Shown here: in pieces, positions 8,141-46,315 of the stretch
Position numbering within the stretch: the first letter of the stretch is position 1
Layout of the letters: every line of letters begins with the position of its first letter
Source: Candidatus Gottesmanbacteria bacterium
Lineage (GTDB): Bacteria; Patescibacteriota; Microgenomatia; 2-02-FULL-39-11
NCBI GenBank assembly: GCA_016186795.1
Contig: JACPKY010000002.1
Location: 604,771 to 668,770 of the forward strand
Direction of reading: 5' to 3'
DNA: 64,000 nucleotides
The notes under the pieces: generated by a model
Database searches by the model: none
The model's input: only the letters and a program-made list of their open reading frames with translations
What the model was told of the DNA's origin: nothing
Made by a program: the position numbers and the translations under genes

Positions 8141-9564
8141 GCGGATATCGTTTGCAGCCTTGCAATTGTCTCATTTTTCCCGAGAATTTCCATAGATTCA
8201 TTCAAGGGTGGCGAAACTTTCTTGCCTGTTATAGTTACTCTTAAAATCATGAAATACTCACTATTGGTAAGACCTGTAGCTTTTGCAACTTTTTGTAACT
8301 CTTCCCCGATCCGATCAGATTTCCACTGGGCAATTTGTATATTTTCTAATATATCTGCTGATTTACTAATCACGTCCTGATAGGATTCTAAATCGACTTC
8401 ATACTTTTGGGGTCTCGCATGGAAAAAACTGGAAATCGCATCGTATTCCTTCAATGTACTTATTCGCGGGGAAACAAGCGGAATAACCTTCCTAACTTTT
8501 TCATCAAACTCAGGAGTCGTTCCATACGAACTCATTGTTCTCAAAAGCGTTGTAAAACGTTTTGGATCTAGGGTTGCAAGATCTTGAATGTATTTTTTAT
8601 TGAGCCACTTCAATTTCTCTCTATCAAAAATAGGCGCTGTTGTTTTTATATCTTCAAGTTTAAAGTGCTTCACCATTTCAGAGAGAGAAAATTTGTCTCT
8701 CTCGTTAGGATCTGACCATCCCATAAGAGAAAGATAATTGATAAGCGCCTCGGGCAATATCCCTTGCTCTTTATACCATGATACCCACACCGGGTTTTTC
8801 CGTTTGGAAAGCTTACTTTTATCAGGATTTCGAAGTAGAGGCAGATGAGCAAAAACTGGAAGATCCCATCCGAATGCTTGATAGAGAAGTATATGCTTGG
8901 GTGTTGAGGAAATCCATTCCTCTCCCCGGATAACATGAGTGATTTTCATGAGATGATCGTCAACAACCACCCCTAAATGATATGTGGGAAATCCATCAGA
9001 TTTAATAAGTACCTGATCATCAATGAGCTTATTTTCAAACGAGATTTTCCCCCGCAAAACATCGGTAAACTCTGTAATTCCCTCCTCTGGAACATTGAGT
9101 CGAATAACGTATTTTTCGTTCTTTATTTTTGCCCGCACTTCTTCGGACTTTACTCTCTTGCACGTTCCGTCATACATAGGTGGAAGGCCTTGTGCTATTT
9201 GCTTTTCTCTCATCTTGGTCAAACGTTGGGGAGTACAAAAGCAGTAATATGCATTTCCTTTCTCAACTAGATTCTGAGCATAATTTTTATACAGTGATAA
9301 TCTCTCTGATTGCCTGTATGGAGAATATGGCCCTCCAATATCTGGACCCTCATCGTATGTCAATCCTAACCACTTCAGCGAAGAGAGAATTCTTTCTTCC
9401 GACCCTTTCACAAGTCGTGACCGATCCGTATCTTCTATCCGAATAATAAACTGACCGTTGTTCTTTTTTGCAAATACGAAATTAATAAGTGCCGTATACG
9501 CATTTCCGATGTGGAGATTTTCACCAGTTGGGGATGGGGCAATACGCGTTCGCACCGTCTTCAT
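8137..9564 (-). CDS. gltX: glutamyl-tRNA synthetase
   Basis: HIGH-region variant (PSPTGENLHIGNAYTA) and the KLSKRK motif. Confidence 0.85.
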   Translation of the reverse strand: MKTVRTRIAPSPTGENLHIGNAYTALINFVFAKKNNGQFIIRIEDTDRSRLVKGSEERILSSLKWLGLTYDEGPDIGGPYSPYRQSERLSLYKNYAQNLVEKGNAYYCFCTPQRLTKMREKQIAQGLPPMYDGTCKRVKSEEVRAKIKNEKYVIRLNVPEEGITEFTDVLRGKISFENKLIDDQVLIKSDGFPTYHLGVVVDDHLMKITHVIRGEEWISSTPKHILLYQAFGWDLPVFAHLPLLRNPDKSKLSKRKNPVWVSWYKEQGILPEALINYLSLMGWSDPNERDKFSLSEMVKHFKLEDIKTTAPIFDREKLKWLNKKYIQDLATLDPKRFTTLLRTMSSYGTTPEFDEKVRKVIPLVSPRISTLKEYDAISSFFHARPQKYEVDLESYQDVISKSADILENIQIAQWKSDRIGEELQKVAKATGLTNSEYFMILRVTITGKKVSPPLNESMEILGKNETIARLQTISA

Positions 9565-11621: not shown

Positions 11622-12995
11622 TCAGACCAATTTTATTCCCAATTCCTTTAATTGCTCTTGTGATACCAAACTTGGTGCATCCATGACAGAAGCTTGTCCT
11701 TGGGATGTCGTGGGAAATGCTACAACTTCGCGGAGATTTATCTCATTGGTCAAAATCATAACAAGGCGATCAACTCCAAACGCACACCCTCCGTGAGGTG
11801 GAGTCCCAAATGAAAATGCTTCAAGCATGTGACCAAACTCATTATGGATCTGGGTCCTACTATAACCAAGAATCTCAAATACCGCCTCAAGAAGTTCTTT
11901 TTTATGTGAGCGAATACTCCCTCCCCCGACTTCAAAACCGTTGCACACCAGATCATACTGAGAGGTTAGAATCTTTCCGATATTTCTCTTCATCAAAACA
12001 TCTTCAATGTATTCATCATTCGGTTTGGAGAAAGGATTATGTGTAAATGTCCACTTCCCTTCCTTATCTTTTTCAAAGAACGGAAAATCAACGACCCACG
12101 AAAACGCGAGAACGTTTTTATCTTCTTTTTCTTTTTGGGTCCGCAGATCAAATTTATCGGCTCCAAATTTCTCTATCGCCTGATTATAGGTATACACTGG
12201 GAAAGGTTTTTGCTGGATCGTCTTGCCCATCGCTTCACATACGGTTATCATCATCTCCTCAAGAATGTTCATGACATCTTCACGATCAACAAAACTCATT
12301 TCAACATCAATCTGCGTATGCTCAAATCCACGATCTGCACGAAGATCTTCATCCCGAAGGCACCTGGCAATCTGGAAATACCGTTCAAATCCTGCAGTCA
12401 TCAGAAGCTGTTTATACTGCTGAGGAGATTGAGGAAGAGCATAGAATTTTCCTTTTTGGAGTCGGGATGGAACAAGAAAATCCCGAGACCCCTCGGGTGT
12501 TGATTTTGTCAAAAGGGGTGTCTCAACCTCAACAAAATCATTTTTGGTAAAAAACTCGCGAACATTTCTGACAAACGCAGACCTGACTTGAAGATTTCTC
12601 GCAAGTCTTTTTCTTCGAAGATCTAAGTAACGGAAACGCAACCGAACTTCCTCGTTAATATCATACCCATCGGTATCAATTTGAAACGGAAGTTCTTTCG
12701 CCTTTGAGAGACAAAGTACTGAATACACTTCAACTTCGACTTCTCCTGTTGAAATTTTTGGATTTACCATTGCCGGAGGTCGCTGTCTCACAACTCCTTT
12801 TACTTCAACGACATCTTCATCTCGGGAAGAAACTACACCTTTTGCGTCAACAAGCTGAACGATTCCACTTCTATCCCGAAGGTCAAAAAAAGTAATTTTT
12901 CCATGACTTCGCCTTGTGGCAATCCACCCATATAAGGTAATCTCTTGCCCGACTTTTTTGGAAGTTTCGATAATAAGGGTTCTGTTTTTCTCCAT
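11622..12995 (-). CDS. aspS: aspartyl-tRNA synthetase, short archaeal/eukaryal type (no GAD insertion)
   Basis: Class IIb motifs QSPQQYKQ and FQIARCLRDEDLRADRGFEHTQID. The 457-aa length lacks the bacterial insertion domain. Confidence 0.8.
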   Translation of the reverse strand: MEKNRTLIIETSKKVGQEITLYGWIATRRSHGKITFFDLRDRSGIVQLVDAKGVVSSRDEDVVEVKGVVRQRPPAMVNPKISTGEVEVEVYSVLCLSKAKELPFQIDTDGYDINEEVRLRFRYLDLRRKRLARNLQVRSAFVRNVREFFTKNDFVEVETPLLTKSTPEGSRDFLVPSRLQKGKFYALPQSPQQYKQLLMTAGFERYFQIARCLRDEDLRADRGFEHTQIDVEMSFVDREDVMNILEEMMITVCEAMGKTIQQKPFPVYTYNQAIEKFGADKFDLRTQKEKEDKNVLAFSWVVDFPFFEKDKEGKWTFTHNPFSKPNDEYIEDVLMKRNIGKILTSQYDLVCNGFEVGGGSIRSHKKELLEAVFEILGYSRTQIHNEFGHMLEAFSFGTPPHGGCAFGVDRLVMILTNEINLREVVAFPTTSQGQASVMDAPSLVSQEQLKELGIKLV

Positions 12996-12996
12996 A

Positions 12997-14193
12997 CTAC
13001 TTGTTATATTTCCTTAATGCTAGACTTAGCAGTTCAACAGCACGTTCTAATTTTTTCTCCTCCAAAACATAAGCGATGCGTACCTCATCCTTCCCAAGTC
13101 CAGGCGTTTTATAAAATCCAGTTGCTGGCGCAACCATCACCGTTTCTCCATTATCAGAAAACTCGGTTAGTAAGTATGTTGCGAACCGATCACTATCGTC
13201 AATTGGAAGTTTTGGAATTATATAGAATGCTCCCTGTGGTGCAACACACGTCACTCCAGAAATTTTCCGAAGATTCTCAACAACAACATCTCGCCTTCTT
13301 TGATAGATTTCTTTTATCTCCCTAATATAAGAAGAATGATTATATAACATAGGTATAATTGCAACTTGCTCAACCGTTGCAACACTTAACCGCGCTTGAG
13401 CAAATCGAAGTATTGCACTCATCACATCTTTGTTCTTACTTGTAACACAACCAATGCGAAGCCCACAGGAGTTGAACCGCTTCGAGACACTATCAACAAT
13501 TACGAGTTGATTTCTTAACTTCTCAAACGAATAAAAGGGAAGAACCTTTTTCCCGTCAAATACAATTTCCTGATATGTCTCATCCGAAATAATAAACAGA
13601 TTATGCTTTAATGCAATATCTGCAAGCATTGTTACTTCTTTGTCTGTATAGAGAGTTCCTGTGGGGTTATTTGGATTGCAAACTACAATTCCTCTCGTTT
13701 TGGGGGTTACTTTTTTCTCGATTTCCTCCCGACTCGGCAGATGAAATCCATCTTCCACAAACGTCCGCACCGGCACTAATTTAATATTTCCCATCGCAGC
13801 AATAATTGCATAGCTTGTATAAAATGGTTCAAAAACTACAAGTTCCTCACTTGGATCTGCGACAGTTAGAAATGCAAAAATTAATCCTTCCGAACCTCCG
13901 CTGGTAACCAGAATATCACGCAGATCAAGTGAAACATCCTTATCTTGATAAAACTTCTGCCAGGCAGTCACAGTTTCTGAGAGGCCCGTTGACGGGGCGT
14001 ATCCAATAGTCTTTTCACTAAATGTATGGATTTTTTTCAAAATTGCCTCTGGTGTGGGAAGATCAGGATTTCCAATGTTTACATGGTAGACTGCGAGTCC
14101 TTTCTTTTTCGCTTCATCTGCAAGAGGTACTAGTTTACGTATTGCCGATGCAGGAGTATGTTTTGCTCTTTGTGAAATAGACGTGTCTCCCAT
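12997..14193 (-). CDS. class I/II PLP-dependent aminotransferase (aspartate aminotransferase-like)
   Basis: PLP-lysine context SVSKRFNSCGLRIG and aminotransferase fold-type I architecture. Confidence 0.7.
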   Translation of the reverse strand: MGDTSISQRAKHTPASAIRKLVPLADEAKKKGLAVYHVNIGNPDLPTPEAILKKIHTFSEKTIGYAPSTGLSETVTAWQKFYQDKDVSLDLRDILVTSGGSEGLIFAFLTVADPSEELVVFEPFYTSYAIIAAMGNIKLVPVRTFVEDGFHLPSREEIEKKVTPKTRGIVVCNPNNPTGTLYTDKEVTMLADIALKHNLFIISDETYQEIVFDGKKVLPFYSFEKLRNQLVIVDSVSKRFNSCGLRIGCVTSKNKDVMSAILRFAQARLSVATVEQVAIIPMLYNHSSYIREIKEIYQRRRDVVVENLRKISGVTCVAPQGAFYIIPKLPIDDSDRFATYLLTEFSDNGETVMVAPATGFYKTPGLGKDEVRIAYVLEEKKLERAVELLSLALRKYNK

Positions 14194-14228
14194 ATATATC
14201 CTCCTTCAGATTGAAAAATATTGATATA

Positions 14229-15731
14229 TTAGCCTAAACTTTTTCTAAGCATCCCTCCATATGAGAGAAGATTACTCATTTTTTTCTTTTCCTCTAAAGC
14301 TTTGAAAATCCGTCCAGAGAGAGCATAGTGTTCGAAATGAGTCCCTTTCCTTGGTCCCAATTCTTCTCCAATCTCTTTTTCCACTTCTTCAATATCTTCT
14401 AAGACCTCCTCCCATCCACCAAAGACGTTGGCAAGAGATGTCACATTCTCTTTATTGAGAAAGTATCCAGCTTTTATCATATCACTACGAAAATTCACAT
14501 AAAGAGGTAATATCTCAGTCCAAATCCCTTGGCGTTTTGCCTCGCGTATTCCTCTTCCTGTACCAATAAGCTCGGGTGGAATACCAATCGAATATAACGC
14601 TGCGGTGAATGGAATGGCTCGAGGAAGTATTATGCCACCAAACCCACGAGAATACCCAAAAAGACCAATATGTTGCATTCTTTCTCTTCGTCTTGCCAAC
14701 TGAGTACTTAAGGAGTTGATTATGGGCGCAAGTTTTTCAATCGACTGTTGATAATATTTTTCAAAAAATGGAATACTTTTTATTACAGCCTTCTTTTGAC
14801 TATCATGAATTGATATGGGGGTTTTACCAGGTAAGTACTTTTTGAGAAATTCAACAGCATCTCGAACTTGAGTTTTTTCGTAGTCATACCGAAAAGCGCT
14901 TTGCAGGGTAAGCGTTGCTACACCGCGATATTCTTCCACTCCCGTCTCAATTGAACTAGGTGAAATACCCCCTCTGAATGGTAAAGAACCAGTTCCTACC
15001 ATAGGGTAGAGCTTTACGCCTGTTTGACGTTCCAATTTCCGATATTCCCAAAGGGCAATTTTCAATGAAACGATTGTCGGAACCAGGCCGGAATTTAATG
15101 CGGGGTCGCTTCTTGCACAATACGGTCGAATATAGGCAGGAATCTTTCGAAAAACGTTACGATGAAGTACTATGTATCTTTTAAGTATTTCAGGAGATTC
15201 AACTATTTTGGCAACCTGCTCAAAAAGTGGAATGATCTCAATGGACTTCATAGATTCCCGCATTTTCAAAAGCTTGTGTTCAAGACTCACCAAATGCTGA
15301 AATGCCTCTTGAATGTCGATAATTTCCTGAGCACTTTCCGTCAAAGGAAGGATGGTTTCAAAAATAGGAGGATCGTCAAATCCAAGACTCTGCGACAGCT
15401 GACTACTTGTTATCATCACCATAAATGCCCGTGCCAAACGAAATTGTTTCTCCACACGCGGATTGGGAATTCGAAACGTAAGAAACTTGTCCCGACCAAG
15501 AGGATGTTTTTGAAAATATTCAAGATGCTGATGCAAAAGTCTATCAACAACAGCTTCGTCAACATACTTTCCCTCCCAATCCCAGTTATACTCATCAATT
15601 CCAAGATCGGAGAAACACAAGAAACACTCTTTTAGTTCGGCGGCTGTTGAGACAAATGCCCGACTATGCCAGTATGGCTTTCCTGCATTATCGGGATGCT
15701 GTGTCGCCATCCCTGTTGGAATTTTTCTCAT
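14229..15731 (-). CDS. archaeal-type phosphoenolpyruvate carboxylase (PepcA)
   Basis: The N-terminus (MRKIPTGMATQHPDNA) matches the archaeal-type PEPC signature IPRxMSTQHPDN. At about 500 aa it is far shorter than bacterial Ppc. Confidence 0.6.
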   Translation of the reverse strand: MRKIPTGMATQHPDNAGKPYWHSRAFVSTAAELKECFLCFSDLGIDEYNWDWEGKYVDEAVVDRLLHQHLEYFQKHPLGRDKFLTFRIPNPRVEKQFRLARAFMVMITSSQLSQSLGFDDPPIFETILPLTESAQEIIDIQEAFQHLVSLEHKLLKMRESMKSIEIIPLFEQVAKIVESPEILKRYIVLHRNVFRKIPAYIRPYCARSDPALNSGLVPTIVSLKIALWEYRKLERQTGVKLYPMVGTGSLPFRGGISPSSIETGVEEYRGVATLTLQSAFRYDYEKTQVRDAVEFLKKYLPGKTPISIHDSQKKAVIKSIPFFEKYYQQSIEKLAPIINSLSTQLARRRERMQHIGLFGYSRGFGGIILPRAIPFTAALYSIGIPPELIGTGRGIREAKRQGIWTEILPLYVNFRSDMIKAGYFLNKENVTSLANVFGGWEEVLEDIEEVEKEIGEELGPRKGTHFEHYALSGRIFKALEEKKKMSNLLSYGGMLRKSLG

Positions 15732-15741
15732 AAACACCAAA

Positions 15742-15775
15742 AACCTCACCTCTTTCAAAGGGTGAGATTTCTCAC
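15742..15775 (-). terminator. rho-independent terminator downstream of recJ
   Basis: Minus-strand hairpin CTCACC-ctttgaaaga-GGTGAG followed by GTTTTTGGTGTTT. Confidence 0.4.
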
Positions 15776-25275: not shown

Positions 25276-26778
25276 ATGAAAAAACAAAAAATTTTTATCT
25301 TTGATACTACCCTTCGTGATGGCGAGCAAACGCCTGGAGCAAAACTCAATACGAATCAAAAAGTAACACTGGCAAGACAGCTCGAAGTGTTAGGCGTTGA
25401 TGTTATTGAGGCGGGATTTCCAATTTCATCACCTGGTGATTTCCGCTCAGTGGTGGAAGTTTCAAAGGTAATTAAGAAGGCTACAATCTGTGGACTTACC
25501 CGTGCAATACCCAAAGATATCGAGGTTGCGGCTGATGCTCTACGATTTGCCAAACGTCCCCGAATACATACCGGAATTGGTGCATCTGATATCCATATCA
25601 AATATAAATTTAAATCTACCCGCGAAGAAATTCTCGCTCGAGGAATTTCTGCAGTAAAATATGCGAAAAGATTTGTTGGCGATGTAGAATTTTATGCCGA
25701 AGATGCGGGACGAGCAGAGAATGAATTTCTCGCAAGAATGGTTGAGGAGGTGATCAAAGCTGGAGCAACCGTTGTGAATATTCCAGATACAACCGGATAC
25801 TGTTTCCCTGAGGAATTCGGCGCAAAAGTAAAATATCTTTTCGACCATGTGACAAATATCGATCGAGCAATTATTTCTGTCCATTGCCACAATGACATAG
25901 GCCTTGCGACAGCCAATACTATTACCGGGATAGCAAATGGGGCAAGACAAGTGGAAGTAACAGTGAATGGTATCGGAGAACGGGCTGGAAATACTTCCTT
26001 GGAAGAAGTTGTTATGGCTATATATACAAGACGTGAGTATCTCCCCTACCAGACAAATATCAAAACTTCCGAAATCGCCAAAACAAGCAAAATGGTTTCT
26101 CAAATCATGGGAATACCAGTCCAACCCAATAAAGCGATTGTGGGAGCAAATGCATTTGCACATTCATCCGGCATACACCAAGATGGGGTTTTGAAGAGGC
26201 GGGAAAACTACGAAATTATTGATCCAAAAATTGTCGGCTTTGACAAATCGCATATTGTGTTAACTGCAAGATCCGGACGGGCGGCTCTTCGGCACAAGTT
26301 AGAGACGATTGGAATAAAAATGGAGAAAAAAGAACTCGATATGCTCTATGAAAAATTCCTTCGACTTGCAGATATCAAGAAAGAAATCTATGAAGATGAT
26401 TTACGATTTTTGGCAGGTCAAAAAGAAGAAACAAATCACAAAAAAGTAAAACTTGTACTTATCCAAGCAGTGTCAGGGAATAAAAACATTCCAACGGCAA
26501 CAGTACGATTATTAATTAACAGTCAAACCCGAGAGGCAGTAGGTATTGGGGATGGACCAATTGATGCAAGTTTCAAGGCAATCGATGCATGTATTGGGAA
26601 AAAATATTCACTGGAACACTTTATGATTCAGGCTGTTACAGTGGGATCTGATGCTATGGCAAATGTCAATGTGGCACTTAAAAAAGGAAATAAAATATTT
26701 TGGGGGACCGGAACAAATACCGACACGATTGTTGCGGCTGTTCTTTCCTATATTGATGCACTGAATAAATTTCTATAA
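25276..26778 (+). CDS. leuA: 2-isopropylmalate synthase / citramalate synthase family, with C-terminal LeuA_dimer regulatory domain
   Basis: HMGL-like N-terminus ([10 protein letters not shown]) and a C-terminal [13 protein letters not shown] regulatory domain. Confidence 0.8.
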
Positions 26779-37905: not shown

Positions 37906-39618
37906 TTAACTTGTCACGGCGCCTTTGGAGGCGCTGCTTACCAGTTTGGCGTATTTTGCTAGCACTCCCCTTTTGTATTTGAAATTTGGTCTTTTCCATT
38001 TTCTCTTTCTCTCTTCCAAAACTTTAGCATCAACATCAATATCTACTACTCTTCTTGTCAGATCAATAGTGATACTATCCCCTTCCTCTACCAATCCAAT
38101 CGGTCCGCCGACGTGAGCTTCCGGCGAGACGTGACCGACCATGATACCGTGTGTTCCTCCGGAAAATCTGCCATCGGTAATAAGAGCCACGTCTTTCCCC
38201 AGTCCTGCCCCCATCAGTGCTGATGATGGAGATAACATTTCTCTCATACCGGGTCCTCCTTTGGGTCCTTCATTGCGAATAATAATCACATCGCCTTTTT
38301 TGATTTTCTTTGCCAAAATGGCATCGAGGGCATCTTCTTCCTTATCAAAAACTCTGGCAGGACCGGTATGTTTATCCAGCTCCTTTCCACTTAACTTGAT
38401 AACGGCTCCTTCTAGTGCAAGAGTTCCATAAAGAACAACAATATGATGCTCTGGCGATGCAAATGGCTTTTTTACATGAGCAATAATTTTCTGATCCTCA
38501 GGAAAATCCGGTGCTTCTTTGAGGTTTTCTGCAACAGTTTTCCCAGAAACGGTAAGACAGTCTCCATGGATAAGGTCTTCTTTAAGAAGCATTTTCATCA
38601 CCATTGGGATCCCACCAATGTTATCCAGATGTTCCATCATGTATGATCCAAATGGAGAAAAGTTTCCCAGAAGCGGAACATTTTTGGCAACTTCCGTAAA
38701 ATCATCAAGGGTTAAGGAAACCTCGGCTTCGTGAGCTAACGATAATAAATGTAATACTGCATTGGTTGATCCGCCAAGGGCAAGGACAACAGCAATAGCA
38801 TTTTCAAACGCTTTTCGCGTCATAATATCGCGGGCGTGAATTCCTTTTTCCATCAAATGGAAAAGCGCAGCAACACTTTCCATACAATCTTTCTTCTTCT
38901 TTTCTGAAATTTTATTCTCCCTGTCAACTGCCGGATGAGAAGCGCTTCCCGGCAAGCTCATACCAAGTGCTTCAATTGCTGAAGCCATGGTATTTGCCGT
39001 ATACATACCTCCACAGGCACCGTTTCCCGGACAAGCATTACACTCTATCCGATGAAATTCTTCATCAGTTATTTTGCCAACTCCGGCTGCACCCACTGCT
39101 TCAAAGACACTGACGATATTTAAGTCTTTCCCATTCCCTATCCCTGGTAAAATTGTCCCGCCATAAAGAGTTATTCCAATCGAGTTATTGCGGGCAAGAG
39201 GAATAAGAGCCCCAGGAATTGTTTTATCGCATCCAGCAAGAGTAAAACTGGCATCCGTTGCATAAGACTCTTGCATCATCTCGATACAGTCGGCGATAAG
39301 CTCCCTTGAGACAAGAGAATATTTCATCCCTTCCATGCCCATCGTCTCTCCATCTGTGACAACCGGAGTCCCAAAAACAATGGGTTTTCCACCTTGTTTC
39401 TCAATTTCTGCACCAACAATTTTCCCAAGATCTTCGATATGCGCATTGCAGGGAGTGATGTTGATGGCTGGGCACGCAACAGCAATAAGTGGTTTGGTAA
39501 AATCTTCGTCAGTAAATCCAACTGCTCGCATCATGGCCCGGGCTGGGGCGCGCTTGATCCAGTCTTTTCCCCCGGGAGTACCAGTTAATTGGTTGCTGCG
39601 GTTTTTGAGGGATTTCAT
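37906..39618 (-). CDS. ilvD: dihydroxy-acid dehydratase
   Basis: ILVD/EDD family motifs (CDKTIPG and Fe-S cysteines). Confidence 0.9.
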
Positions 39619-40670
39619 TTTTTCTTCCAGTTCTCAGGTCGAAGTTGTCTTACTTGTTTTCCTGCCTGCCACATCTCCGAATTGCCCATTTCTTGGAGCT
39701 CGCAGTTCAAATCTTCTCTATAGTTGGGCTGACTGTTTTTATCCAAGACGCGTTTGGCCTCTGTCCCATCTGCAACTTTTTGATAAAGTTTCTCAAATAC
39801 CGGTTCGACTGCTTTTTTGAATTTGTCTTTCCAATCAAGTGCACCCCTTTGAGCAGTGGTACTTATATTTGCATACATCCAATCCATTCCTTTTTCGCCA
39901 ACAAGTTTTATTAGACTTTGGGTAAGCTCCTCAACTGTCTCATTAAACGCCTCAGAAGGTGAGTGACCTTTTTTCCGAAGCGTTTCATATTGCGCTTCCA
40001 TAACTCCAGTGAGAGCCCCAACTAAAATTCCCCTCTCACCTGTTAAATCACTAAATACTTCTTTCTCAAATGTTGTTGGGAATAAAAACCCGGACCCTAT
40101 GGCTATTCCTACTGCTAATACTTTTTCTTTTGCTTTCCCAGATGTATCCTGGAAAATGGCATAGCTACTATTTATTCCTGACCCATCAAGGAAGTTGCGC
40201 CGTACTGAAAGGCCGGATCCTTTTGGCGCTACCAAAATAACATCAACATCTTTGGGAGGAATAACACCGGTTAGATTTTTATAAGTTATCGAAAATCCAT
40301 GAGAAAAAACAAGTGTTTTCCCGTGGGTTAGATATTTTTGCAAAGTTGGCCAAAACGCTTTCTGTCCTGCATCGGAAAGTAAAAATAAGATAATCGTAGC
40401 TTTCTTTGCTGCAATTTCTAGATCAAAAAGAGTCTTGCCAGGAATCCACCCATCGGAAACTGCTTTGTCCCAGCTTTTGGAATTTTTCCGTTGACCAACG
40501 ATGACGTTAATTCCATTATCCCGCATGTTCTGGCTTTGCCCCGGACCTTGAACTCCGTATCCTAAGACGGCAACGGTTTCCTTTTTAAGAATTTCTTTGG
40601 CTTTCCCTAGAGGAAATTCCTCACGAGTTATGATATTTTCCTTAACTCCTCCGAAATCCAGTATTGCCAT
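39615..40670 (-). CDS. ilvC: ketol-acid reductoisomerase
   Basis: NADPH motif ([17 protein letters not shown]). Confidence 0.85.
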
Positions 40671-40683
40671 ACTTTTTCTCCCT

Positions 40684-41607
40684 TTATACCTTTGTGAGCC
40701 AATCTGAATATTTTTTCTGTTTTCCTCGAACGAGAGAAAAGAAAAGCTTATTTATTTTTTCTGTGATAGGGCCCATTTTCCCGGTACCAATTTTTCTCCC
40801 ATCAACTTCTGCTACCCAAGCAACTTGTGCTCCAGTGCCAGTTAAAAACGCCTCGTCAGCAATATATACCTCTGTCCTGTCTATATTCCTTTCCTCAGTT
40901 GGTATATCTAAATCATGAGCAAGTTGGAGAATTGTTCTTCTCGTCATTCCCTCTAAAACATCACCATATTTAGGAGGTGTAACAAGAACACCATCGCGAA
41001 CAATGAAAAAATTTGCTCCACTTCCTTCGGCGATATGGCCATCGGCAGACATTAGAAGTGCATCATCGTACCCAAGATTTGCGGCATCACCTCTGGCAAG
41101 AGACGAGTTTATATATCCTCCAGAAATTTTGGCACGTGAAGGAATCATATTATCATTTATCCTCACCCAATTGGAGATTGCCAGTTTCAACCCTTTGGTT
41201 ATGGAAAGGTACTCTCCCAATGGAATCATGTAGAGAGCAAATTCAAATGTTAATGGCGCAAGATCTGGTGAAAGGAAAAAGTCACTCCCATATGCAAAAG
41301 GGCGAAGATAATAATCAGTTTTCGGCTGATTTTTCCTTACCAACTCAAGCGTCGTATGCATCAGTTGTCCAAGATCGTACCGGATAGATTTGTTAAGAAT
41401 TTTTAACGAGTTGAGAAATCTTTTGTAATGATCCTCGAGCCGGAAAATATACGTATGCTTTTTATCTGATGACGTATATCCCCGAATCCCCCCAAATATG
41501 GCATTACCATACTGAAGGGCATTGGTCATGATGTTTACCTTTGCTGTCTCAATTGGGACTATATTTCCTTCAAAAAACGCAAATGGAAATGATCGTGTAT
41601 CTTTCAT
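40684..41607 (-). CDS. ilvE: branched-chain amino acid aminotransferase (class IV)
   Basis: Fold-type IV PLP motifs. The start was trimmed to MKDTRSF. Confidence 0.8.
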   Translation of the reverse strand: MKDTRSFPFAFFEGNIVPIETAKVNIMTNALQYGNAIFGGIRGYTSSDKKHTYIFRLEDHYKRFLNSLKILNKSIRYDLGQLMHTTLELVRKNQPKTDYYLRPFAYGSDFFLSPDLAPLTFEFALYMIPLGEYLSITKGLKLAISNWVRINDNMIPSRAKISGGYINSSLARGDAANLGYDDALLMSADGHIAEGSGANFFIVRDGVLVTPPKYGDVLEGMTRRTILQLAHDLDIPTEERNIDRTEVYIADEAFLTGTGAQVAWVAEVDGRKIGTGKMGPITEKINKLFFSLVRGKQKKYSDWLTKV

Positions 41608-41609
41608 AG

Positions 41610-42047
41610 TTACGAGCAGCCGCAGTTTCCGCCGCAACCACATCCTCCTTCTTCATGAGCCATAGGACGCGTAATATAGGCAACTGCATCTATTTCAACA
41701 AGAGCATCTTTGGGAAGTTTCGCAACTTGAACTGTTGCCCGTGCTGGATAGGGCTTTTGAAAAAATGAAGCATATACTTCATTCATCTTTCCGTAGTCAT
41801 CCATGCTTTTAAGATACACAGTTGTTTTAAGAATCGTTTGTAAACTTCCGCCAGCCTCTTCCAAGACATACTCGAGATTTGTTAATGCTTGACGAGTTTG
41901 TTCTTCAATTGCCCCTTTGACAAACTCCTTCGTTTTCGGATCAACACCGATATGACCGGAACAAAAAATTAAATCACCCAAGACAATCCCTGGTGAATAT
42001 GGGCCAATTGCCGCAACACCCTTTTTCGCAACAATTTCTTTTTTCAT
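41610..42047 (-). CDS. ridA: RidA (YjgF) family enamine/imine deaminase with a Cys/Gly-rich C-terminal tail
   Basis: RidA core followed by HEEGGCGCGGNCGCS. Confidence 0.7.
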   Translation of the reverse strand: MKKEIVAKKGVAAIGPYSPGIVLGDLIFCSGHIGVDPKTKEFVKGAIEEQTRQALTNLEYVLEEAGGSLQTILKTTVYLKSMDDYGKMNEVYASFFQKPYPARATVQVAKLPKDALVEIDAVAYITRPMAHEEGGCGCGGNCGCS

Positions 42048-43918
42048 AAGCTTTTCTCCTTTCGGTGGTTTTTCACTTGATAATACAATTCGTTGTACCC
42101 AGCAACATATGCATTCATCGATGCCACTATTATATCAGGAGATGTTCCTTTCTCGACTACTTGCGTACCATTTTGCGCCTGAAGCACCATTGTCACCTCT
42201 ACAGTTGAATCACTCCCAGTCGTTGGAATCTCAACGGTAAAATCTGAGAGTTTAAATTTCAACCCATCGTGTTTTGCGATAACCTTATTGATTGCAGAAA
42301 TTGCTGCATCGACCGGTCCAACCCCATCACTTTGTGCATGATACTTCTTCCCATGCAATAAAACATCAATGGTTGCTTTGGGCCGTTTATTTTTGGTATC
42401 CCAAATTTGAAAATCGGTAAGTGTGAGATATTTATTTTTTGTCTCCTGCTGAATAATTCCTTCAAGAATAGACTGAAGATCTGCACGTCCTATGACTTTT
42501 CCTTTATCTTTTATAAACTGACGTAAACGAAGATATGTTTCCTCTAAATCTCGTTTGGGTAACTTTATACCAAACTCGTCTTTCACCACGTTTTGTATCC
42601 GACTCTTTGTAGGAAGGGAGGAAAAAAGAATTTTTTCTTTGTCCCTCACTCCTTGTGCACGAAGCGCAAACAGATTCCCAGAAATAACTCTTTTCACTTC
42701 CTTCTCATCTGGTTCAATCGTTGGAGGTTCGGCAAGTACCTTCAGAGTTGCTGCTGGATCTTTCAAGCCAGCTCCTGTTGCAACACAGACAACACGATCA
42801 TCTCTTTGAATTGTTCCATCTCGTAACAGTTTCTTTAATGCAACAATAGTGGTTGCGGATGATGGCTCAATGTAGAGAGCTTCCAAATGAGCAAGTTCCT
42901 GCTGAGCTGCAAGCGTTTCCTCATCAGAGACCGAAACGACCATTCCATGTGAACGATTGAGCGCTTCTATAACCTTGACTCCATCAAGAGGATTCCCAAC
43001 TGCGATTGCCGAATTTATGGTCTTTGGATTTTTAACGGGTTTGATAAAAAACTCGCTCTTATCTGTTTTTTGAAATATCGAATGACACCCATAGGCCTGC
43101 ACTGCAATAAGTTTTGGAAGTTTTTCGATAAATCCTAAGCGGTAATACTCCCAAAACCCCTTCCAGATAGAAGCTAAATTTGTCCCCATTCCAACAGGAA
43201 CAATGACCCAGTCAATTATTGCCTCCCAAGTACTTTCTGCCAACTCAAACCCAAGAGACTTCTGACCCTCAGACCGAAAGACATAATCTCCCGCAAGGTA
43301 ATACCCGTATGTTTTGGCCGTCTTTTCTGCAAGCGTATTTGCCTCAGTGTATGTTCCACGTACCTGAATAACTTTGGCACCATACGATAGACTTTGTGCC
43401 AATTTTCCCCTTGGAGTGTTCTCGGGTACAAAGACAAAACACGAAAGACCTGCTTGAGCAGAGTAGGCTGCAACCGATGCAGCCATATTTCCGGTTGAAG
43501 CAACACAAACAGATGAGTATCCCAGTTCTTTTGCTTTATTGATTTCAATGAAACTTCCCCGATCCTTAAATGCTCCGGTTGGGTTAAGCCCTTCATTTTT
43601 AATAAATAGTTTGGGAATCCCGATTTTCTCACCAAGTCGTCGTGCCTGATGCAAAGGTGTTCCCCCTTCCTGCAGACTAATAAGATTGTCGCGGGTCTTT
43701 AAAGGGTAAAAATCAAGATATTTCAGTGTTTTTGATGGAGTATTTTTGAGTATGTATGCATTAACCTGCTTTTTCAGTTCGTCATAATCGTATGTTACAT
43801 CAAGGGGGCCTCTACACGAGAGACAACGTGACGTAGTCTTTAGCTCATCGGTCTTTTTATGGCAAGCAACACAGGAAAGATAGTATAGATTCTTATTCAT
43901 AAAAGAATTCAAATTCAT
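42044..43918 (-). CDS. threonine-synthase-like PLP enzyme fused to a C-terminal LeuA/CimA-type allosteric (LeuA_dimer) domain
   Basis: N-terminal Zn-ribbon (CxxC...CxxC) and ThrC-like fold-II PLP core (GGTPL...NPTGAFKDRG, EGQKSLGFE, TGAGLKDP). The C-terminal about 190 aa parallel the leuA C-terminus in this window (DGVGPVDAAISAIN against [13 protein letters not shown], plus a GSDS/GSDA block). Confidence 0.55.
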   Translation of the reverse strand: MNLNSFMNKNLYYLSCVACHKKTDELKTTSRCLSCRGPLDVTYDYDELKKQVNAYILKNTPSKTLKYLDFYPLKTRDNLISLQEGGTPLHQARRLGEKIGIPKLFIKNEGLNPTGAFKDRGSFIEINKAKELGYSSVCVASTGNMAASVAAYSAQAGLSCFVFVPENTPRGKLAQSLSYGAKVIQVRGTYTEANTLAEKTAKTYGYYLAGDYVFRSEGQKSLGFELAESTWEAIIDWVIVPVGMGTNLASIWKGFWEYYRLGFIEKLPKLIAVQAYGCHSIFQKTDKSEFFIKPVKNPKTINSAIAVGNPLDGVKVIEALNRSHGMVVSVSDEETLAAQQELAHLEALYIEPSSATTIVALKKLLRDGTIQRDDRVVCVATGAGLKDPAATLKVLAEPPTIEPDEKEVKRVISGNLFALRAQGVRDKEKILFSSLPTKSRIQNVVKDEFGIKLPKRDLEETYLRLRQFIKDKGKVIGRADLQSILEGIIQQETKNKYLTLTDFQIWDTKNKRPKATIDVLLHGKKYHAQSDGVGPVDAAISAINKVIAKHDGLKFKLSDFTVEIPTTGSDSTVEVTMVLQAQNGTQVVEKGTSPDIIVASMNAYVAGYNELYYQVKNHRKEKSL

Positions 43919-44421
43919 TTAAAAAGAGCTGTTCTTCCAGTACGGACAAATTCAATAATGCGATATTCTTTCATATTTTCGTAAAAAGCGTCAATTTTTT
44001 CCTCTCCACCGGTCACCTCAACTAAGAATGTATCTTTGGTCATATGGAGAACCTTTGCGCGAAAGTGCTCTATTATTTTTAATATTTCACCTTTTTCTCC
44101 CTTTCCTTTAATCTGAATTTTGGCAAGAGCCAGCTCGCGACTGATAAGTTTTTCATCGGCTACTTTCTCAACACGTAAAACATTTACCAGTTTGGCAACT
44201 TGTTTACACATATTGGCTACTTGGTCTCCGTTCCCAGAGACGGTGATGGTAAATCGCGTGACATTTGGTATCTCTGTATACCCAACGGTAGCGGTTTCGA
44301 TGTTGAACATTTTTCGACGAAAAAGCCAGAGAATTCGGAAAAAAACTCCGGGAGTATTTTCACTCCAAATGATAATTGTTGAAAGATTTTTTGCCATATT
44401 ACTTATCCTTGGGAGAAACAA
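43915..44421 (-). CDS. ilvH: acetolactate synthase small (regulatory) subunit
   Basis: N-terminal ACT domain; the gene overlaps ilvB. Confidence 0.8.
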   Translation of the reverse strand: MFLPRISNMAKNLSTIIIWSENTPGVFFRILWLFRRKMFNIETATVGYTEIPNVTRFTITVSGNGDQVANMCKQVAKLVNVLRVEKVADEKLISRELALAKIQIKGKGEKGEILKIIEHFRAKVLHMTKDTFLVEVTGGEEKIDAFYENMKEYRIIEFVRTGRTALFK

Positions 44422-46129
44422 TCATATCCGCAATTCCAGCTCCCGCTGGAATCATAGGAAACACGTTTTCTTCGGCTTCAACTACAAACTCTACTAAAAA
44501 AGGTCCTCTCTTTTTCCGTGCTTTGGAAATTGCCTCACGAGTTTCTTTAAATGTTTTTGCTTTTAAAGAGGGAATCCCAAACCCGTCACAGAGCTTTTGG
44601 AAATTTGGGTTTTTAAGCTTCACCTCAGAGTAATTCCCTTTGTAAAATAACTCTTGCCATTGCCGAACCATTCCCAAGAAATTATTATTCAGAAGCGCTA
44701 TTTTTACTTCAAGTTTTTCTTGAACGATTGTTGCCAATTCCTGGATGGTCATTTGAATTCCTCCATCTCCTATAACAATCCACACCTCACGATTGGAATC
44801 TGCACTTTTCACTCCCATTCCGGCGGGAAGTGCAAATCCCATAGTACCTAGTCCTCCTGAAGTGATGTGAGTGTTGTAATCATTAAACGTATAATATCGA
44901 GCAGCATACATCTGATTCTGCCCTACATCGGCAACAATAGTTGCTTTATTTTTAGTTTGTCTCGATATTTCCGCAATCACTTGCGCGGACTTTAAGTGCG
45001 GAGCATGCAGTTCTTTCTTATACACTTTTTCCGTTTCCTCGCGCTTCCACTGATGAAACCGCTTGAGCCACTGGGGATTCCGACGTTTGGAAAGCTTTGG
45101 AAGAATCTGCTCAAGGACCATTTTTGCATCTCCAACCACTCCAAGTGTTGGCTTTACGTTTTTCCCTAACTCAGACGGATCAATATCGATATGGATTATT
45201 TTTGCCTGTTGTGCGTACTTTGCGACATTCCCCGTCACGCGATCATGAAATCGCATTCCAACAGCAAGAATAACATCGGCTTCATTTGGGGCCCTGTTTG
45301 CGGCAACATTCCCGTGCATTCCCGGCATACCCATAAACAACCGATGTGTTGATGGAATTGTTGAAAGACCAAGCTGGGTGAGTGTTACCGGAATATCTTG
45401 TTTTTCTGCAATTTGCAAAAGTGTCTTCCCGTCACCTGAAAGAAGCATCCCATGTCCTGCGATAATAAGAGGACGAACGGCAGAATTTAACATGGATACT
45501 ATCTTTTCAACTTCTTTTGGTGTTGCTTGTAGTCTTACTCTTCCCTCAAGATGTTTTTTGGGCAAAGGAATATGAAATTCGGCATAGGCAGTTTGCGCAT
45601 CCTTTGTGATATCAACAAGTACTGGTCCGGGGCGCCCATGTGATGCAAGATAAAATGCCTCGTACAGACTTGGTGCAATATCTTCTGCTTTTGTCACCAA
45701 ATAATTGTGTTTAGTTACGGCAAGTGTCACACCCAAAACATCAGTTTCTTGAAACGCATCGGTTCCTAAAAGTGGCGATGGAACTTGTCCAGTTATACAA
45801 ACAAGAGGAACACTATCAAGCATGGCATCGGCAAGACCGGTCACAAGATTTGTTGCACCAGGTCCACTTGTTGCAAAACAAATGCCAGGTATACCGTTTG
45901 CCCATGCGTACCCTTCTGCAGCGTGAGCTGCTCCTTGCTCGTGACGAACTAAGATATGGTGGAGCTCCGGATATTTATACAAGGCATCGTAAATCGGAAT
46001 ATTTGCTCCGCCCGGATACCCAAATATTGTTCGGACACCGTGGCGAAGCAAACACTCACAGACTATATCTGCCCCTTGCACTTTTTCACCTTCTTTTAAT
46101 CTGGTTTTTAGTTTCGTTTTTTGCTCCAT
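44399..46129 (-). CDS. ilvB: acetolactate synthase large subunit (TPP-dependent)
   Basis: TPP-enzyme N-terminal, central and C-terminal domains (GDG...N motif). The start is ATG at 46129, with an alternative GTG at 46081 preceded by GAAGGTGA. Confidence 0.85.
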   Translation of the reverse strand: MEQKTKLKTRLKEGEKVQGADIVCECLLRHGVRTIFGYPGGANIPIYDALYKYPELHHILVRHEQGAAHAAEGYAWANGIPGICFATSGPGATNLVTGLADAMLDSVPLVCITGQVPSPLLGTDAFQETDVLGVTLAVTKHNYLVTKAEDIAPSLYEAFYLASHGRPGPVLVDITKDAQTAYAEFHIPLPKKHLEGRVRLQATPKEVEKIVSMLNSAVRPLIIAGHGMLLSGDGKTLLQIAEKQDIPVTLTQLGLSTIPSTHRLFMGMPGMHGNVAANRAPNEADVILAVGMRFHDRVTGNVAKYAQQAKIIHIDIDPSELGKNVKPTLGVVGDAKMVLEQILPKLSKRRNPQWLKRFHQWKREETEKVYKKELHAPHLKSAQVIAEISRQTKNKATIVADVGQNQMYAARYYTFNDYNTHITSGGLGTMGFALPAGMGVKSADSNREVWIVIGDGGIQMTIQELATIVQEKLEVKIALLNNNFLGMVRQWQELFYKGNYSEVKLKNPNFQKLCDGFGIPSLKAKTFKETREAISKARKKRGPFLVEFVVEAEENVFPMIPAGAGIADMIVSPKDK

Positions 46130-46130
46130 A

Positions 46131-46170
46131 AAACAAAAAACCTCTCGTTTCTTGAGAGGTTTCAATCTTT
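46131..46170 (-). terminator. attenuator terminator immediately upstream of ilvB
   Basis: Minus-strand AACCTCTC-aagaaac-GAGAGGTT followed by TTTTTGTTTT, ending at the ilvB ATG. Confidence 0.55.
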
Positions 46171-46180
46171 ATTCTTACTT

Positions 46181-46276
46181 TTATTTCTTTATTCTTGCCT
46201 TTATTACCTCCCAAGAATATCCCTGCACAATTGCAAGGACAATAACTGAGAGAATAATAAGGTTATTTTTGATCAT
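46181..46276 (-). CDS. ilv operon leader peptide (MIKNNLIILSVIVLAIVQGYSWEVIKARIKK)
   Basis: A 31-codon ORF with a run of 11 Ile/Leu/Val codons in 13 positions, lying between the promoter and the terminator. Confidence 0.5.
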   Translation of the reverse strand: MIKNNLIILSVIVLAIVQGYSWEVIKARIKK

Positions 46277-46286
46277 GACTGGTGGA

Positions 46287-46315
46287 ACTATAACAAAGTG
46301 ATACTTTACTGTCAA
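46287..46315 (-). promoter_or_regulatory. sigma70-type promoter of the ilv leader/operon
   Basis: On the minus strand, a consensus -35 TTGACA, a 17-nt spacer and a -10 TATAGT. Confidence 0.55.

Follow-up and report, generated by a model that had tools for sequence, protein, structure and literature searches.

Which enzyme supplies 2-ketobutyrate for isoleucine biosynthesis in an ilv operon that carries no threonine dehydratase gene (ilvA)? The question is raised by a stretch of 64,000 nucleotides (nt) from Candidatus Gottesmanbacteria (assembly GCA_016186795.1, contig JACPKY010000002.1), which is called the window here and is part of a 1.1-Mb genome. In this window, a gene for a protein of 624 amino acids (aa) lies between ilvN/ilvH and ridA, where ilvA is usually found. 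The protein, referred to below as the fusion, joins a pyridoxal phosphate (PLP) enzyme of the threonine synthase (ThrC) family to a LeuA-type allosteric domain. Our analysis favors an isoleucine-inhibited deaminating lyase that would make 2-ketobutyrate, probably from threonine, and would replace IlvA; we put the probability of this reading at about 60%. The fusion would then be a neofunctionalized descendant of threonine synthase and a non-orthologous replacement of IlvA at the 2-ketobutyrate step. An initial annotation of the same DNA had offered two options, the 2-ketobutyrate-generating step and a feedback-controlled threonine synthase. The first is favored over the second by the replaced residues, the separate clade, the ilv/ridA context and the CimA-like effector pocket described below.

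A threonine synthase scaffold with replaced signature residues

The gene is a single uninterrupted open reading frame (ORF) of the minus strand, the plus strand of the region being full of stops; the coordinates in the initial annotation were right, and the strand needed correcting. All motifs listed there were present (GGTPL, NPTGAFKDRG, EGQKSLGFE, TGAGLKDP, DLEETYLRLRQF, DGVGPVDAAISAIN and GSDSTVEV). Pfam searches yielded PALP (E = 4.2e-74) and, at the C-terminus, LeuA_dimer (E = 1e-26; 93.9 bits against a gathering cut-off of 24.9), the latter over profile positions 4–130 of 131. The ThrC-type fold-type II PLP enzyme with an N-terminal Zn-ribbon, as earlier described, was thereby borne out, each cysteine of the CxxC...CxxC pattern being at least 90% conserved in 90 homologues. 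An AlphaFold2 (AF2) model built with 90 homologues as input was confident (pLDDT 88.3, pTM 0.80) and resolved the ribbon (beta strands 12–16 and 38–43), the PLP fold, the linker helices (405–413, 416–422, 438–449 and 455–471) and two C-terminal beta-beta-beta-alpha units (residues 498–623). The protein was 100% identical to a database protein of Candidatus Gottesmanbacteria. We rejected an assembly or frameshift artifact, since more than 150 independent sequences, drawn from many phyla, share this architecture.

The nearest solved proteins were class I threonine synthases (2ZSJ, 2D1F, 1UIM/1V7C and 6CGQ/6NMX; phmmer E = 1e-63 to 1e-74), and Foldseek matched the model to solved threonine synthases with E = 1e-30, TM scores of 0.83–0.86 (on target) and 36–40% identity. 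The closest known enzyme is the ThrC of Bathyarchaeia, of which 27 unfused genes were retrieved by a genome scan; they share the N-terminal Zn-ribbon and are about 42% identical to the query. No Thr_dehydrat_C match was found in the fusion with Pfam, and the NCBIfam models for IlvA scored 58–85 bits against cut-offs of 378–801. The fusion also scored 81 bits with the cysteate synthase model (cut-off 325) and 296 bits with NF006050 (cut-off 303).

For the residue comparison, solved sequences were rebuilt from printed alignments and the numbering of Thermus thermophilus was checked, K61 being the PLP lysine. Six positions, T88, N154, S155, N157, N188 and S248, were invariant in 32/32 canonical threonine synthases, comprising 5 solved enzymes (bacterial and plant) and the 27 Bathyarchaeia ThrC. 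All six are replaced in the fusion. T88 is M145 (M in 174 of the 175 fused-family sequences, a set made up of database homologues and fused loci); N154, S155 and S248 are G210, D211 and D312 (G, D and D, respectively, in 175/175); and N157 is deleted, with Y212 in its alignment column here and a deletion throughout the fused family. N188, for which the column was taken from 53 fused loci, is M244 here and C 34, M 6, V 6, N 4, F 3 and S 1 in those loci. The canonical A189-G190 pair is replaced by G245-T246, which is invariant in the fused family. The residues specific to the family are M145, G210-D211-Y212, R215, M244, G245-T246 and D312. Kept from ThrC are the invariant PLP lysine K118 in the FKDRG motif, the S-T-G-N loop, which binds the carboxylate, and the EGQK and GLKDP motifs. 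We take T88, N154, S155, R160 and N188 to be the ligands of the substrate or product phosphate in threonine synthase, the role that they reportedly have. The released phosphate is said to steer PLP-aminocrotonate to water addition, giving threonine (product-assisted catalysis), with 2-ketobutyrate as the outcome when phosphate is missing.

The same separation was seen in the phylogeny. The fused sequences and one unfused protein from Aenigmatarchaeota that shares their MGD motif formed one clade in 98/100 neighbor-joining (NJ) bootstraps, and this clade, called MGD-type here, stood apart from both the Bathyarchaeia ThrC and the solved threonine synthases. The Bathyarchaeia proteins carried canonical motifs (ASTGNTSAS, LLNSINPFRIEGQK and PVGNAGN), and 27/27 of their genes adjoined hom, usually followed by lysC, with thrB upstream where the seed detected it. 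They had been considered as unfused members of the fused subfamily and were rejected as such, one inspected locus (L062) being a canonical ThrC in a thr operon; they served as a control instead.

Gene contexts were counted in 80 loci, the best among at least 585 relatives of the PLP domain (with and without the fusion) that a scan of one genome per species recovered; 53 of the 80 carry the fusion. Genes of the ilv or leu pathways lay within five genes in 27/53 fused loci and in 0/27 canonical ones (Fisher p = 7e-7), and ridA did so in 15/53 (14 directly adjacent) and 0/27, respectively (Fisher p = 0.0016). Neither thrB nor lysC was adjacent in any of the 53 fused loci, and the same was true of metA/metX; a hom-like gene was adjacent in one (L040), immediately downstream. 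When a PLP-domain hidden Markov model (HMM) was applied to the window and 85 loci, no second PALP-family ORF was detected except for a weak hit in L049 (E = 1.6e-5), and the ilv operons that carry the fusion therefore lack ilvA. In the window, 57 ORFs have 150 aa or more; Pfam was run on about 40 of them, those of roughly 190 aa and above that look like real genes, and the HMM on ORFs of at least 100 aa in all six frames; neither search found another PALP ORF, in agreement with the earlier remark that the window holds no canonical ilvA. With seeds for the thr pathway, no other thrC was found in the 64 kb.

Regulatory domain and proposed reaction

The C-terminal parallel to the LeuA encoded in the same window (25276–26778, plus strand), which had been noticed by eye, proved real: the last 198 aa of the fusion aligned to LeuA residues 343–499 with 32% identity (BLASTP E = 2e-16), far beyond chance. 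This LeuA is a standard enzyme (HMGL-like, HCS_D2 and LeuA_dimer) and is followed by leuC, leuD and leuB. NCBIfam LeuA models matched the fusion from about model position 340, and the linker is a homologue of the accessory helices found in LeuA ahead of its regulatory domain.

LeuA models scored the C-terminal domain at 93 bits and CimA models at 43 bits; its sole solved sequence relative was the regulatory domain of Leptospira CimA (3F6G/3F6H). The residues lining the pocket of the fusion are G532-x-G534-P-V536-D537-A538, L557, F560, I564, S569, V573, P594 and I596; conservation is 90% or higher at G532, G534, V536, D537, A538, L557, I564, V573 and P594. The isoleucine pocket of CimA presumably consists of Y430, D431, L451, Y454, I458, T464, V468, P493 and Q495, residues that reportedly play this role in the Leptospira domain; the printed 3F6G sequence agrees at all nine. 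Their counterparts in the fusion are, in the same order, V536, D537, L557, F560, I564, S569, V573, P594 and I596. At three of these positions the fused family agrees with CimA and differs from LeuA-like proteins. I458 is I in 159/164 fused-family sequences and A in five LeuA-like proteins, V468 is V in 163/164 and A or V in the five, and P493 is P in 164/164 and T in the five. In CimA the domain responds to isoleucine, in LeuA to leucine (PMC13381585). Given this response and the CimA-like pocket at the three positions, isoleucine is most likely the effector of the fusion.

The domain architecture, the substitutions, the clade and the gene contexts are observations; what the enzyme does, on which substrate, and with which effector and direction of control, is predicted. 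In the mechanism that we propose, L-threonine as the most likely substrate would form an external aldimine on K118 and undergo beta-elimination of water (EC 4.3.1.19 chemistry). The alpha-proton would be abstracted and the beta-hydroxyl would depart, and D211 or D312 may replace the phosphate ion as acid/base. In the absence of a phosphate site, the resulting PLP-aminocrotonate should be freed by transimination as 2-aminocrotonate/2-iminobutyrate, which the coupled RidA would hydrolyze to 2-ketobutyrate and ammonia. The 2-ketobutyrate would then enter IlvBN, IlvC, IlvD and IlvE, encoded alongside, and isoleucine would bind the paired C-terminal domains and inhibit the enzyme. Canonical ThrC enzymes, that of cyanobacteria included, turn threonine into 2-ketobutyrate in vitro (PMC12172450); because ThrC already deaminates threonine as a side reaction, the proposed change would be a shift of specificity and not new chemistry.

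The pairing with RidA points in the same direction. RidA hydrolyzes the enamine/imine products of PLP dehydratases (PMC3565831, PMC4433059), and the argument from its placement, made in the initial annotation, gains weight from the recurrence of ridA near the fused genes and from the 4-nt overlap in the window. Unfused MGD-type genes were directly beside RidA in three of the six contexts read (P0134/L086, P0126/L087 and P0146); the positions are 8001–9702 in L086 and 6621–8269 in L087, and the unfused genes encode about 370–440 aa. Synteny connects L087 to a locus with the fusion, L003. It is thus the catalytic domain, and not the ilv operon, that the pairing follows. Its recurrence in translationally coupled form, both within ilv operons and away from them, points to an enzyme releasing 2-aminocrotonate or 2-aminoacrylate, which threonine synthase does not do. 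On the P0146 contig, an HMGL-like gene (410 aa, without LeuA_dimer) is followed by the PLP gene and RidA, an arrangement that could be a remnant of the domain fusion or its forerunner.

The RidA proteins of Gottesmanbacteria end in a Cys/Gly-rich tail of 12–18 residues, which in the window reads HEEGGCGCGGNCGCS (41610–41660, minus strand) and elsewhere takes forms such as CCGGGCGGDC, GCCGGCC and GCDGCGGECC (set L007, L008, L009, L010 and L057). The tail was absent from RidA of the other lineages examined, and it might bind metal or be redox-active.

Both parts of the fusion, the probable fold-type II PLP lyase and the LeuA-type allosteric module, are known, and the combination is new. With class I ThrC (EC 4.2.3.1) the fusion shares the fold and the retained motifs, but it differs in the six replaced residues, in an extra 220 aa of LeuA-type linker and regulatory domain, in its clade and in lying among ilv and ridA genes instead of thrB, hom and lysC. 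With IlvA (EC 4.3.1.19) it shares the fold-type II superfamily, the place in the ilv operon, the RidA partner and the proposed logic of an isoleucine-inhibited entry step giving 2-ketobutyrate, whereas IlvA is regulated through the ACT-like Thr_dehydrat_C domain, which is unrelated to LeuA_dimer; the likeness would be an analogy by recruitment, not orthology. LeuA and CimA have homologous linker helices and a homologous regulatory domain with the same G-x-G-P-x-D-A motif and hydrophobic pocket, but in these enzymes the domain follows a TIM-barrel HMGL-like enzyme that condenses acetyl-CoA with a keto acid, and in the fusion it follows a PLP enzyme. Other ThrC-fold proteins with an outcome beyond threonine synthesis are THNSL2, the cysteate synthase of methanogens and the moonlighting ThrC of cyanobacteria; to our knowledge, these use phosphorylated substrates or retain threonine synthase activity, and none has a LeuA-type domain.

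Weighing the alternatives

Several observations weigh against a 2-ketobutyrate-forming replacement of IlvA. The fusion is 36–40% identical to solved threonine synthases and only about 23% identical to IlvA/TdcB (Foldseek), and it passes the cut-off of the thrC model TIGR00260 (238.4 vs 167.1 bits; a canonical Bathyarchaeia ThrC scored 363), which explains its annotation as threonine synthase. The equivalent of R160, R215, is retained, and anion binding may partly persist. The phosphate-ligand roles and the product-assisted model are background to the conservation pattern, which is what was computed here, and the isoleucine pockets were compared with a single CimA and five LeuA-like sequences as references. 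Roughly half of the fused loci, those of NC10 without exception, lie away from ilv genes. In Micrarchaeia (L045 at 11807–13270, and L047) the fusion is directly followed by a LeuA/CimA-like gene of 487 aa (best NCBIfam match NF002085, 620 bits), which has its own LeuA_dimer and could itself supply a citramalate route; two enzymes with the same allosteric module thus stand side by side.

The first of these points could be taken to mean that the protein is a genuine threonine synthase under branched-chain amino acid feedback, placed in the ilv operon because threonine is the precursor of isoleucine. Threonine synthases give the best matches by sequence and by structure, all database copies that have a name bear this one, no other thrC was seen in the window, and allosteric control of a threonine synthase has a precedent in the plant enzyme activated by S-adenosylmethionine (SAM), as cited in PMC13381585. 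The reading is nevertheless improbable. It would require six positions that are invariant in the canonical enzymes, four of them reported phosphate ligands, to have been replaced family-wide, although canonical relatives with the Zn-ribbon keep these residues and sit in thrB-thrC-hom-lysC operons, which the fusion clade never does. Threonine synthase releases no free enamine, so that the coupling to RidA, including that of unfused relatives outside ilv operons, would go unexplained, and the operons would still be left without a step forming 2-ketobutyrate.

Closer to the IlvA replacement is a route in which 2-ketobutyrate is made by beta,gamma-elimination from a homoserine-level substrate (O-phosphohomoserine, O-acetyl- or O-succinyl-homoserine, homoserine, or methionine/cystathionine), bypassing threonine, with isoleucine regulation and RidA assistance as before. 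Gamma-elimination is native to the ThrC scaffold; threonine synthase without phosphate reportedly yields 2-ketobutyrate, and mammalian THNSL2 is said to be an O-phosphohomoserine phospho-lyase. The RidA and ilv context fits this route as well as threonine deamination, R215 is kept, and the new invariant D211 and D312 could recognize a different leaving group. MetB, moreover, forms 2-ketobutyrate by cleavage of O-succinylhomoserine, and E. coli can rely on it for isoleucine synthesis (PMC7476758). A hom-like gene lies downstream of the fusion in L040 and a methionine-gamma-lyase-like gene between the fusion and ilvE in L050, but each is found in a single locus only, and thrB, metA/metX and lysC are adjacent in 0/53 fused loci. 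The reported phosphate-ligand positions are now Met, Gly, Asp and Cys/Met/Val, an environment hostile to the phosphate of O-phosphohomoserine, and the hydroxide of homoserine itself is a poor gamma-leaving group. We regard the homoserine-level route as unlikely, though less so than a threonine synthase. The methionine-gamma-lyase-like gene of L050 (Parcubacteria, 8244–9425) scored 460 bits, below the cut-off, and would be a second potential source of 2-ketobutyrate in that operon.

The loci outside ilv clusters, about half of the total and all of those in NC10, could also mean that another fold-type II PLP reaction is catalyzed (catabolic serine dehydration, racemization or beta-replacement) and that the association with ilv genes is secondary. 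The ridA-gene pair of L003/L087 adjoins the glycolytic PGK, and the superfamily is diverse, 101 of the 150 best clusters being neither canonical nor MGD. The coupling to RidA, however, points to a deaminating lyase and not to a racemase or a replacement enzyme, the enrichment of ilv/leu genes is highly significant, and the effector pocket resembles that of an enzyme of the isoleucine pathway. Dehydration of serine is to be expected of a threonine deaminase as a side activity and would be no true alternative. This reading seems to us about as improbable as a regulated threonine synthase, and an isoleucine-inhibited, threonine-deaminating replacement of IlvA remains the reading that we prefer.

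Family distribution and operon surroundings

Each of the 120 best homologues in the database, the most distant at 46% identity, had the PALP plus LeuA_dimer (PF08502) architecture, and every named one was called threonine synthase. The initial annotation had allowed for a common architecture of ordinary threonine synthases with an unrelated C-terminal domain: the architecture is indeed common and annotated in this way, but the C-terminal domain is LeuA_dimer and the signature residues are replaced. Among the best 80 loci, the fusion was found in Patescibacteria (Gottesman-, Woese-, Peregrini-/Peri-, Gracili- and Parcubacteria), in Methylomirabilota/NC10 including M. oxyfera, in Baltobacteraceae, in a metagenome-assembled genome (MAG) of Nitrospinota, and in DPANN archaea (Woesearchaeota, Micrarchaeia and Altimarinota). 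No well-studied cultured organism was among the carriers found. In the literature searched for this fusion and for threonine deaminases of ThrC type that serve isoleucine biosynthesis, no report was found, the nearest being that on an unfused cyanobacterial ThrC (PMC12172450). The family is widespread, apparently uncharacterized and, on the reading preferred here, uniformly mis-annotated.

The PLP domain alone was searched against 1.84 billion cluster representatives, yielding 1507 hits at E <= 1e-30, and the 150 best (50%-identity clusters, P0120–P0269) were typed. MGD-type sequences made up 43 clusters (14 full-length and fused to LeuA_dimer, one 403-aa fragment carrying LeuA_dimer, and 28 unfused or fragmentary), 6 had the canonical threonine-synthase motif and 101 had other motifs. 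The Zn-ribbon ThrC-like superfamily thus appears functionally heterogeneous, and many of its "threonine synthase" annotations are probably wrong. The clusters with other motifs include several forms of 460–510 aa with unexplained C-terminal extensions and one of 718 aa with an N-terminal fusion (P0201).

A broader claim, on which we would lay even odds from these sequence data, is that the fusions form an unrecognized class of allosteric threonine deaminase, mis-annotated as threonine synthase, in which the signature residues of the scaffold gave way in part to carboxylates and a LeuA/CimA-type isoleucine sensor was added. In many Patescibacteria, DPANN archaea and NC10 bacteria this class would be the principal or sole source of 2-ketobutyrate, the unfused RidA-paired relatives belonging to a wider family of ThrC-derived dehydratases. 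If so, many "threonine synthase" genes would be misnamed (among the at least 585 PLP-domain relatives, fused and unfused, and the 43 MGD-type clusters of the 150 best), and metabolic reconstructions would be in error for uncultured lineages, both in crediting them with threonine synthesis and in listing the ilvA step of isoleucine synthesis as missing. A few active-site substitutions and one deletion would have turned a synthase into the lyase of the next pathway step, and an allosteric module would have passed from a condensing enzyme with a TIM barrel to an unrelated catalytic fold, that of a PLP enzyme, and would still sense the end product of the same pathway. The proposal is testable, as the gene is small, its product looks soluble, E. 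coli mutants in ilvA and thrC are available and the predicted specificity-switch residues are explicit.

Two of the fused loci, L049 and L057, are on contigs labelled as Gammaproteobacteria MAGs. L057 has the operon order of Gottesmanbacteria, a 60%-identical fusion and a RidA with the Cys/Gly tail, and is probably a mis-binned contig of the candidate phyla radiation (CPR). In L049 the gene order is different and the fusion gene is 48% identical.

The operon of the window (Table 1) runs ilvB-ilvN-fusion-ridA-ilvE-ilvC-ilvD. The fusion overlaps both of its neighbors, ilvN and ridA, by 4 nt; at the ridA junction the overlap is an ATGA in which the ATG of ridA lies over the TGA of the fusion, and the three genes are translationally coupled through these ATGA overlaps; the place of the fusion at the usual spot of ilvA, as noted earlier, is confirmed by the overlaps on both sides. 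With ilvN as a seed, ilvN beside ilvB was recovered in many related loci, where ilvE, ilvC and ilvD flank the fusion too. The names ilvE, ilvC and ilvD come from the initial annotation and from reading the translations, not from profile scans. The longest ORF of ilvE begins at 41643 and overlaps ridA by 34 nt; a start at the ATG at 41606 (MKDTRSFPFAFFEGN...), right after the ridA stop, is more plausible. Likewise, ilvB is likely to start at the ATG at 46129 rather than at the TTG at 46165.

Table 1. Features of the ilv operon and of the fusion gene in the window
Feature	Coordinates	Strand	Basis
Whole fusion gene (Zn-ribbon, ThrC-derived PLP domain, helical linker, LeuA_dimer)	42044..43918	-	ORF, Pfam, AF2 model
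N-terminal Zn-ribbon, residues 12-43 (C16, C19, C32, C35)	43790..43885	-	Cys conservation, model strands
Fold-type II PLP domain, residues 80-382, PLP lysine K118	42773..43681	-	Pfam PALP, Foldseek, phmmer
Helical linker, residues 405-477 (405-490 in model)	42488..42706	-	AF2 model, alignment to window LeuA
LeuA_dimer (PF08502) allosteric domain, residues 478-611	42086..42487	-	Pfam E 1e-26
ridA (enamine/imine deaminase)	41610..42047	-	TIGR00004, 153 bits vs cut-off 106
ilvN/ilvH (acetolactate synthase small subunit)	43915..44421	-	Stop overlaps fusion start by 4 nt
ilvB (acetolactate synthase large subunit)	44399..46129	-	ORF, leader reading
ilvE (40684-41606 or 41643), ilvC (39615-40670), ilvD (37906-39618)	37906..41643	-	ORF translations
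Operon leader upstream of ilvB	46127..46315	-	Promoter, leader ORF, terminator-like hairpin

The leader begins with a strong sigma-70-like promoter (46315–46287; TTGACA-17-TATAGT with TG upstream), followed by an ORF of 31 aa (46276–46181; MIKNNLIILSVIVLAIVQGYSWEVIKARIKK) in which 13 residues are isoleucine, leucine or valine (I/L/V), and by a terminator-like hairpin of 10 bp with a U-run (46163–46137) that ends just ahead of the ATG at 46129; the fold of the leader RNA had a z score of -5.15. Mini-ORFs rich in I/L/V were also present upstream of the operon in L006 and L009. The arrangement looks like leader-peptide attenuation in a CPR bacterium, judged from peptide and hairpin; the same two elements would back co-regulation of the operon. 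The 31-aa ORF could instead encode a small membrane peptide. A T-box or riboswitch upstream of the operon was unsupported, as Rfam yielded just a sub-threshold Phe_leader (E = 0.46).

The source organism has complete ilv and leu operons, a combination believed to be unusual for Patescibacteria. Elsewhere in the window (12997–15758, minus strand), a gene for an archaeal-type phosphoenolpyruvate (PEP) carboxylase (PEPcase_2, E = 6e-131) adjoins one for a class I/II aminotransferase, which suggests that this organism, despite its small genome, makes its own oxaloacetate and aspartate.

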